The translations under genes and the position numbers were made by a program. From Escherichia coli (GTDB lineage: Bacteria > Pseudomonadota > Gammaproteobacteria > Enterobacterales > Enterobacteriaceae), in the NCBI RefSeq assembly GCF_003334765.1, contig NZ_QOWT01000001.1: a DNA stretch of 64,000 nucleotides; one strand, 5' to 3'. Shown here in pieces: positions 2,355 through 63,471 of this stretch. The notes under the pieces were generated by a model. That model ran no database searches. It was given only the letters and a program-made list of their open reading frames with translations, and was not told where the DNA came from. Positions within the stretch are counted from its first letter, which is position 1; each line of letters begins with the position of its first letter.

Positions 2355-2920
2355 TATGTATTCCCTTGTGATTATAATCTTCATGAATATATCAATAAGT
2401 GCCGTTATCCAAAAAAAAGCACATTTGGATACTATTCTATGAAGTTCATTTTATTTTAAGGATTACATGTAACAAATGTATTTAAAAGATTTCAAAATGT
2501 TTCTAATCTATTTAATATAATTCAGAATTATGAATTCTAAATATAAATATTCATGAAAATTATAAATGTATATCAATATGTTATGAGTTGGGTGGAAACA
2601 TAGGGGGTGTCAATGATTGTTGCGCTAAACGGCTGGTGTGATCACGCGCACATTAATGAAGGCATAAAAAAAAGCCGGCATCATGCCGGCCCAAAAAATA
2701 TAAACAAGACGATAAAAGGCTAATAACGGAGGCATCATGACACAGAATAATAAAAAGGTATAATTGTAATCAGTGCTAATATATTGATTGAATGAATTAA
2801 TAAAGCCGATCTCAAAGATAAATAAAATCGCTCAAAACGATTTTTCCTGTATTCACTGCCGTTGCGCAAAAATTATCTATTTGTTCAAAAAATGAGTGAG
2901 TCTTGACTGGCTCATCCAAT

Positions 2921-8387: not shown

Positions 8388-10912
<2,525 letters not shown>

Positions 10913-11092
10913 TTACCAGGATGATTCTCAAAACAGCACAAATTATCAAAGATGATTTTGTTCGGGAGCGATCCCGCTGACGCCAGAGCCACCAAGGGGT
11001 GACGTGCGTCACATTTCTATTCATAAGTAGCGTTAATCATTCATATAGCGAATATTTTCTTGTCAGCGAAAAAAATTGCGGATAAGGTGATG

Positions 11093-11179
11093 AACACATC
11101 AGATTTCCTGGTGTAACGAATTTTTTAAGTGCTTCTTGCTTAAGCAAGTTTCATCCCGACCCCCTCAGGGTCGGGATTT
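11093..11179 (+). ncRNA. dsrA: DsrA small regulatory RNA
   Basis: Sequence aacacatcagatttcctggtgtaacgaattttttaagtgcttcttgcttaagcaagtttcatcccgaccccctcagggtcgggattt matches remembered DsrA, including its terminator hairpin. Confidence 0.85.
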
Positions 11180-11192
11180 TTTTATTGTGCAT

Positions 11193-11420
11193 TCAACGAT
11201 TCACTTCAGAGACGCTGAAGTCATGAATATCCAGTTCGAAGGCATCCGCCAATTCACGCCATGTATGATATTCACGTCCATCGACGCTAACGTGTTCAGA
11301 ATCGTTCTGGCTGCGATGAACTTCGCTTTCGCTAATTTCATTGATCGCCGCCAGCAGGGCATCGACATCGACGCTGACCTCACGTTTTGCGGTATCGCTG
11401 TACTCTTTTGCGGTTTTCAT
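11193..11420 (-). CDS. yodD: stress-induced protein YodD
   Basis: ORF track 11193..11435; product MKTAKEYSDTAKREVSVDVDALL... from ATG at 11420. Confidence 0.8.
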   Translation of the reverse strand: MKTAKEYSDTAKREVSVDVDALLAAINEISESEVHRSQNDSEHVSVDGREYHTWRELADAFELDIHDFSVSEVNR

Positions 11421-11492
11421 CATCTTTCCTCGCAACCGTTACTCTGTTGTTGCCGCCAGTCGTTAAGTCCGCCTGGCATCACTTAAGTATAG

Positions 11493-11771
<279 letters not shown>

Positions 11772-11814: not shown

Positions 11815-12438
11815 TTAGCGCATGTTGACAAAAATACCATTAGTCACATTATCCGTCAGTCGGACGACATGGTAGATAACCTGTTTATTATGCGTTTTGA
11901 TCTTACGTTTAATATTACCTTTATGCGATGAAACGGTCTTGGCTTTGATATTCATTTGGTCAGAGATTTGAATGGTTCCCTGACCTGCCATCCACATTCG
12001 CAACATACTCGATTCGGTTCGGCTCAATGATAACGTCGGCATATTTAAAAACGAGGTTATCGTTGTCTCTTTTTTCAGAATATCGCCAAGGATATCGTCG
12101 AGAGATTCCGGTTTAATCGATTTAGAACTTATCAATAAATTTTTTCTGACCAATAGATATTCATCAAAATGAACATTGGCAATTGCCATAAAAACGATAA
12201 ATAACGTATTGGGATGTTGATTAATGATGTGCTTGATGTGCTGACTGTTAGAAGCATCATGGATGAAACAGTCCTCATTAATAAACACCACTGAAGGGCG
12301 CTGTGAATCACAAGCTATGGCAAGGTCATCAACGGTTTCAATGTCGTTGATTTCTCTTTTTTTAACCCCTCTACTCAACAGATACCCGGTTAAACCTAGT
12401 CGGGTGTAACTACATAAATCCATAATAATCGTTGACAT
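11815..12438 (-). CDS. rcsA: LuxR-family capsule (colanic acid) regulator RcsA
   Basis: 207 aa ORF with C-terminal LuxR HTH; AT-rich gene. Confidence 0.9.
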
Positions 12439-12727: not shown

Positions 12728-13513
12728 TTATATTAATGGCAATTCACTAATAATATCAGCCAGCAAATTAAAAATTTCACTGAATAAATGTTCGCAAAAA
12801 GGCGCAATTAACGGCATTAATGCCGCCATTAAAGAGATACCGACAGTCAGAGTTAATGGAAATCCAATAACAAAAATGGATAATTGCGGGGCCATACGAT
12901 TCAGTAAACCTAATGCCAGATTCAGGGTCAGCAGCAGAGTAATGAGCGGTAACGCCAGCATCAGCCCGTTAAGGAAAATCAAACTCCCTGCTTTGGTGAG
13001 TGCCAGAAACGCATTGCTGTTCAACGGTTCGCCACCAATAGGCAGGGTGTGAAAGGTATCGACCAGCAGTGAAATCAACCATAAATGACCGTTAAATGTC
13101 AGGAACAGCAGTAACGCCAGCATATCCATGATACGCGCTAAAACGGGCATATTGAGATGGCTGGCCGGATCGACAAACGTCGCAAATGACAGCCCCATTT
13201 GCAGACCGATAATTTCGCCAGCGGTTCGCACAGCGGCAAAGGCAAATTGCATGGTAAAACCAAGCGCAATGCCGATCAGGATCTGCTGCACGGCCAGCCA
13301 CAGAGCAAAGAACGAAAAAACAGGAACATCGTTGGCAGGTAATGATGGGGCAATGGCGAACGTGATCATCATTGCCAGCCCCAGTTTTACCCGTTTCGGC
13401 ACGCTGCGTTCGCTCAGAATTGGTGCGGTAGAAATGAGCGCCAGCACGCGCAGTAACGGCCAGAAGTACAGGCTTAACCAGGAAAGCCATTGATCGCTTG
13501 TCACCTGCATCAT
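12728..13513 (-). CDS. fliR: flagellar export apparatus protein FliR
   Basis: 261 aa membrane ORF, last gene of the fliL-R operon. Confidence 0.9.
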
Positions 13514-44852: not shown

Positions 44853-44928
<76 letters not shown>

Positions 44929-44982
44929 GTTTAAAAGACATCGGCCTCAAGCGGATGTCTGGCTGAAAGGCCTGAAGAATTT

Positions 44983-45056
44983 GGCGCGTTAACAAAGCGG
45001 TTATGTAGCGGATTGCAAATCCGTCTAGTCCGGTTCGACTCCGGAACGCGCCTCCA
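44983..45056 (+). tRNA. cysT: tRNA-Cys (anticodon GCA)
   Basis: ggcgcgttaacaaagcggttatgtagcggattgcaaatccg...cgcgcctcca. Confidence 0.9.
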
Positions 45057-45068
45057 CTTTCTTCCCGA

Positions 45069-45155
45069 GCCCGGATGGTGGAATCGGTAGACACAAGGGA
45101 TTTAAAATCCCTCGGCGTTCGCGCTGTGCGGGTTCAAGTCCCGCTCCGGGTACCA
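45069..45155 (+). tRNA. leuZ: tRNA-Leu (anticodon TAA, long variable arm)
   Basis: gcccggatggtggaatcggtagacacaagggatttaaaatccc...gggttcaagtcccgctccgggtacca. Confidence 0.9.
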
Positions 45156-63358: not shown

Positions 63359-63386
63359 TTCTCCCGATTTCCTCAATTGAAATGAA

Positions 63387-63414
63387 CCCGATGATCTGCG
63401 CATCGGGTTTTTTA
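63387..63414 (+). terminator. Rho-independent terminator after cheW
   Basis: cccgatgatctgcgcatcggg hairpin followed by tttttta. Confidence 0.7.
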
Positions 63415-63444
63415 TTTCAATTTCGCGGCGGGTGGCATCAGCAA

Positions 63445-63471
63445 TAAAGTTTCCCCCCTCCTTGCCGATAA
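63445..63471 (+). promoter_or_regulatory. sigma-28 (FliA) promoter of tar
   Basis: Perfect TAAAGTTT-N11-GCCGATAA about 30 bp upstream of the tar ATG. Confidence 0.8.

Follow-up and report, generated by a model that had tools for sequence, protein, structure and literature searches.

A textbook dsrA locus between yedP and yodD in an Escherichia coli strain

Does the DNA that separates yedP from yodD in this Escherichia coli strain carry an independent gene for the small RNA DsrA, or can it be accounted for by the 3′ signals of the neighbouring genes or by a short coding sequence? We addressed this question in a 64,000-nt stretch of one contig (NZ_QOWT01000001.1; hereafter, the window), for which an earlier note, made from the sequence alone, had proposed DsrA at positions 11093-11179. 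The assignment was borne out when we compared the entire window with Rfam 15, applying gathering thresholds: the DsrA covariance model, RF00014, matched exactly these positions on the plus strand, scoring 102.5 bits (gathering score, 60; E 1.5e-18), the match spanned the full length of the model (positions 1-85 of 85), and no other model matched the region. In the curated record of K-12 MG1655, the ncRNA gene dsrA (b1954) occupies 2025223-2025313 on the minus strand and is flanked by yodD and yedP. When window positions 10990-11200 were aligned with the b1954 region (207 aligned bases), the RNA proved to be 100% identical to the curated gene over 91 nt, terminator tail included, without a single mismatch. 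Positions 11093-11179 (+) have the sequence AACACATCAGATTTCCTGGTGTAACGAATTTTTTAAGTGCTTCTTGCTTAAGCAAGTTTCATCCCGACCCCCTCAGGGTCGGGATTT, with four further T immediately after it; the K-12 gene is 91 nt long (11093-11183) because its annotation takes in all seven T of the terminator tail. The transcript probably continues into the U-tract as far as 11183, where the K-12 gene also ends, with 11179 being the end of the Rfam model. Almost certainly, then, this E. coli strain carries its chromosomal dsrA here, as an independent small RNA gene that would act on RpoS and H-NS by the mechanism proposed below. None of our observations speaks against this reading. Its features and those of its surroundings are collected in Table 1.

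Table 1. Coordinates of dsrA, its parts and its neighbours in the window
Feature	Coordinates	Strand	Basis and remarks
dgcQ	8388-10082	+	ORF list and RefSeq annotation
yedP (mannosyl-3-phosphoglycerate phosphatase-related), divergent upstream neighbour	10079..10894	-	ORF; RefSeq annotation of identical DNA
dsrA -35 hexamer TTGTCA	11060..11065	+	Read from sequence; identical to K-12
dsrA -10 hexamer TAAGGT	11083..11088	+	Read from sequence; 17-bp spacer, four bases before +1; identical to K-12
DsrA sRNA	11093..11183	+	87 nt to 11179 (Rfam model); 91 nt to 11183 (K-12 annotation)
Stem-loop 1, SL1 (nt 4-22)	11096..11114	+	MFE fold; 7-bp stem, AUUUC pentaloop; corresponds to NMR-defined SL1 (PMC5766208)
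rpoS-pairing segment (nt 10-33)	11102..11125	+	Against K-12 rpoS leader -119..-97: 19 Watson-Crick and 2 G-U pairs
A/U-rich single-stranded linker (nt 23-34)	11115..11126	+	AACGAAUUUUUU; unpaired in NMR model B (PMC5766208)
hns-pairing segment (nt 31-43, UUUUAAGUGCUUC)	11123..11135	+	Against K-12 hns +7..+19: 13 contiguous Watson-Crick pairs
Stem-loop 2, SL2 (nt 35-59), conformationally dynamic	11127..11151	+	MFE fold
Stem-loop 3, SL3 (nt 61-85), Rho-independent terminator	11153..11183	+	10-bp stem, 7 G-C pairs, 5-nt loop, then seven T; terminator scan
yodD (75 aa stress protein), convergent downstream neighbour	11193..11420	-	ORF; annotation
dsrB	11583..11771	+	ORF; annotation
rcsA, capsule-synthesis activator; dsrA is named for the rcsA downstream region	11815..12438	-	ORF; annotation
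fliR	12728-13513	-	ORF list and RefSeq annotation

The gene order around the RNA, yedP(-), dsrA(+), yodD(-), dsrB(+), rcsA(-), fliR(-), is canonical. Both the ORF list and the RefSeq annotation of 100%-identical DNA place the RNA between yedP and yodD, as the earlier note had held. Its further statement that the RNA lies next to rcsA stands for the neighbourhood and fails for direct adjacency: yodD and dsrB intervene, and rcsA begins 636 bp past the RNA. An anti-H-NS effect of DsrA on rcsA was reportedly described by Sledjeski and Gottesman in 1995. In the PGAP-annotated RefSeq E. coli records that we inspected (H2 and H13-H24), no feature underlies the DsrA match, the curated K-12 record being the one with an annotated ncRNA; given the absence of dsrA from the PGAP annotation of these records, sequence-level scans are what recover it. 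On the far side of yedP, dgcQ (yedQ) contains an in-frame amber codon at 9321-9323 (TAG, compared with CAG in K-12), which leaves ORFs of 311 aa and 251 aa and cuts the sensor part off from the GGDEF domain. The 61-mer containing this amber codon is a minority allele, with an identical match in 207 of 5309 E. coli genomes, and dgcQ of strain 1428 carries the PGAP flag ‘internal stop’.

Folding of the 87-nt RNA yields three stem-loops with a minimum free energy of -31.9 kcal/mol, compared with a mean of -16.7 kcal/mol for dinucleotide shuffles (z = -4.67), and none of the 200 shuffles was as stable. The string cccctcagggtcgggattt, which the earlier note had singled out as the terminal hairpin, is found at 11161-11179 and forms part of the terminator stem-loop. 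Judged by sequence, the hallmarks of Hfq-dependent small RNAs are in place, namely, an A/U-rich linker beside a stem-loop and a U-tailed terminator. The fold layout agrees with the NMR-based description of DsrA, in which A28-U32 constitute the major Hfq site and SL2 is dynamic, with several competing models (PMC5766208).

The three stem-loops differ in what a 35-sequence cross-species alignment, from which covariation was counted, has to say about them. For SL3, compensatory double changes were observed at 5 of the 10 pairs (37 cells), a level that was reached by none of the 500 shuffles, and sliding the partners against each other reduced pairing from 93% to 24-50%. Because the cross-species set was retrieved by exact match to nt 6-25, the invariance of SL1 constitutes no covariation evidence: SL1 is paired in all 35 sequences by construction, and the only informative pair is nt 4-22, which is A-U in 23 sequences and G-U in 12. 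For SL2, we compared three models across the 35 species. The long helix of the MFE fold, with 77% of cells paired, is the worst of the three; in NMR model B, the top two pairs are lost in 12-14 of the 35 species; and pairing in the invariant CUUGC/GCAAG core reaches 98.9% with no covariation, given that an invariant core cannot covary. None of the three models thus gains covariation support in these 35 species, and we therefore do not commit to a single fold of SL2.

Could the element nevertheless be only a shared or bidirectional terminator, or the 3′ untranslated region of yodD or yedP, with no RNA gene of its own? The geometry of the 3′ end lends this reading some appeal, in that the G+C-rich hairpin at 11153-11177 ends close to the stop codon of the convergent yodD (15 nt when measured from the stem and 9 nt from the T-tract) and is preceded on the minus strand by an A-run, so that it might contribute to the termination of yodD as well. 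On that strand, however, no T-run follows the hairpin, and yedP, for its part, is transcribed away from the element. Moreover, conservation is not confined to the hairpin: the 60 nt upstream of it are conserved, SL1 and the linker being invariant in 78 species representatives, a conserved promoter lies at a fixed distance from +1, and all 87 nt match the DsrA model. We regard it as exceedingly improbable that the element is only a terminator or 3′ untranslated region of this kind. That the region encodes a small protein deserves still less credence and is, in our judgement, negligible. The mechanical ORF list does include a candidate, a TTG-initiated ORF of 116 aa at 11136-11486 (+), but this frame is the antisense shadow of yodD, crosses the terminator and is unannotated in every RefSeq record checked, and ATG is absent throughout the RNA. 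Being antisense to yodD and overlapping an RNA without ATG, the 116-aa ORF was rejected as a coding sequence.

An independent dsrA transcript calls for a promoter, and the hexamers upstream of +1 are the same as in K-12. The layout TTGnnn-N16-18-TAnnnT at the right distance from +1 recurs in 73 of 74 distinct Enterobacteriaceae upstream regions, with a spacer of 17 bp in 69 of these 73; across species, the commonest -35 is TTGTCA (46) and the commonest -10 is TAAGGT (27). The dsrA promoter escaped a scan for the sigma-70 consensus, because the -10 TAAGGT fits only 3 of the 6 positions of TATAAT, and the promoter call rests on identity with K-12 and on cross-species conservation. These two lines point to a promoter that belongs to dsrA itself and would give rise to an independent transcript. 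According to Repoila and Gottesman (2001/2003), the -10 and the spacer are said to act in thermoregulation.

The sole difference from K-12 in the 207 aligned bases is located at window position 11047, which is A in place of G and corresponds to -46 of dsrA, upstream of the -35. The 60-mer with A at this position is a minority allele, present in identical form in 736 of 5241 E. coli genomes. A single SNP of limited occurrence might be taken to mean that this strain regulates dsrA differently or less strongly; yet the -35, the spacer, the -10 and the RNA are all identical to those of K-12, the A allele is common to hundreds of natural isolates, an O157:H7 strain among them, and position -46 lies outside what we take to be the core promoter sufficient for dsrA thermoregulation. 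An altered or weakened regulation is accordingly very unlikely. More broadly, the A allele may affect how strongly dsrA is transcribed or how temperature or LeuO controls it and, separately, the DsrA terminator may be bidirectional and serve yodD, but both ideas are improbable and neither is indicated by the evidence.

Having established a K-12-identical RNA, we turned to its targets. As the window contains neither rpoS nor hns, the K-12 genes were used. A search for local complementarity, permitting short bulges only, recovered one DsrA segment for each target (Table 1), and both pairings agree with the published duplexes, namely, DsrA32/rpoS25 (-119..-95) and the linker together with SL2 on hns (PMC5766208). 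Against shuffled DsrA, the pairings are only moderately unusual, with 4 of 300 shuffles as good for rpoS (z 2.7) and 23 of 300 for hns (z 1.8). Such modest shuffle statistics are typical of the pairing between small RNAs and their targets. The weight of the pairing evidence is in its agreement with experimentally established sites rather than in the shuffle statistics. A calculation with RNAduplex, in which full-length DsrA was paired with rpoS -160..+30, gave -43.3 kcal/mol against a shuffled mean of -43.2 kcal/mol, with 226 of 500 shuffles as good; this shuffle control was uninformative because the algorithm bridges long interior loops, and the calculation was replaced by the local complementarity search.

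DsrA is an Hfq-dependent small RNA that activates the translation of RpoS and represses H-NS. Both functions, to which the earlier note had alluded, are experimentally established. Hfq is required, and the pairing with rpoS opens the inhibitory leader, shields the mRNA from RNase E and works against premature termination by Rho; the synthesis of DsrA increases at low temperature and after acid challenge (PMC5766208, PMC6537650). For expression, Hfq dependence, induction by cold and acid, and regulatory outcomes, we draw on this literature, whereas the complementarity to the K-12 targets is shown by the DNA at hand. Taken together, these considerations suggest the following mechanism. The sigma-70 promoter (TTGTCA, 17 bp, TAAGGT) would produce a non-coding RNA of 87-91 nt that ends at the Rho-independent terminator. 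Hfq would occupy the A/U-rich linker and the 3′ U-tail, and DsrA would act in trans through imperfect base pairing. SL1 would open to pair with rpoS, such that nt ~10-33, comprising the 3′ half of SL1 and the linker, would engage the leader at -119..-97. This pairing would open the inhibitory leader hairpin that sequesters the ribosome-binding site, so that translation would rise and the mRNA would be stabilised. On hns, nt 31-43 would pair with codons 3-7, just past the start codon, and hns translation would, as a consequence, be blocked and H-NS-silenced genes, such as rcsA, derepressed.

The locus is widespread. Among 5426 complete E. coli genomes, the 87-nt RNA is found in 5339, with at least 99% identity in 4974, and the other 87 yielded no megablast match to DsrA. 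Two of the E. coli matches are on plasmids, and strain B-1109 has DsrA at two places, including a partial copy that covers nt 22-87. In an exact-pattern scan for nt 6-25 across one genome per prokaryotic species, 78 loci were obtained, all from Enterobacteriaceae, and 72 complete loci among them represent 66 distinct RNAs. The genera with dsrA include Escherichia, Salmonella, Citrobacter, Enterobacter, Lelliottia, Leclercia, Buttiauxella, Atlantibacter, Trabulsiella, Franconibacter, Siccibacter, Phytobacter and others. Within the 78 loci, YodD is encoded nearby in 70, DsrB in 65 and RcsA in 63, at near-constant offsets from dsrA: yodD at about +100 (-), dsrB at about +450 (+) and rcsA at about +700 (-), with yedP at about -1000 (-). 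No upstream homologue of yedP or dgcQ was found in the Citrobacter freundii-group loci L005, L009, L017-L019, L033, L042, L065 and L070, several of which extend well upstream; thus, the left neighbour is not universal, in contrast to the right-hand yodD-dsrB-rcsA.

Divergent homologues mostly remain recognizable by the covariance model, with 9 of 10 above the DsrA gathering score; the exception comes from Atlantibacter and has a shortened SL2. This shortening is seen in four loci (L049, L056, L057 and L076), which derive from Atlantibacter and from a record titled Citrobacter freundii M-21. In these, SL2 is both shortened and altered (e.g., AAATTCTTCTTGCTCAGCAAG), and the hns-pairing segment is not the one present in E. 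coli. L049, the one of the four that was tested, falls under the Rfam gathering score with synteny, SL1 and the terminator intact.

DsrA is not the only structured RNA in the window. The Hfq-binding small RNA rseX (RF01401) was detected at 2667-2756 (-), scoring 99.0 bits where the gathering score is 50; compared with the consensus of its model, it has a 3-nt and a 1-nt deletion, just before and inside the terminator hairpin. C0465 RNA (RF00116) at 63378-63455 (-) matches its model consensus perfectly (111.6 bits). A tRNA cluster at 44853-45155 (+) comprises Gly(GCC), Cys(GCA) and Leu(TAA), in what we take to be the glyW-cysT-leuZ arrangement of E. coli.

Comparison with K-12 leaves little that is distinctive. 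The RNA, the -35, the spacer, the -10, the neighbours and their orientation, the three stem-loops, and the segments that pair with rpoS and hns are all alike; the only difference is the G-to-A change at -46, upstream of the promoter core, apart from the fact that the K-12 record presents the locus in the reverse orientation. RprA and ArcZ, which are Hfq-dependent activators of rpoS, are unrelated to DsrA in sequence, locus and inducing signal. What they share with DsrA is the anti-antisense mechanism on the same rpoS leader hairpin (PMC3937726).

By every feature that can be examined in silico, namely, identity, structure, terminator, promoter layout, synteny and complementarity to two targets, this is an ordinary textbook dsrA and a member of the DsrA family, already known and with nothing new to it, so that its significance is one of annotation only. 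As a model riboregulator, DsrA couples low temperature and acid stress both to the general stress response governed by RpoS and to the lifting of silencing by H-NS, and the presence of an intact DsrA identical to that of K-12 implies that this strain has the standard circuit.
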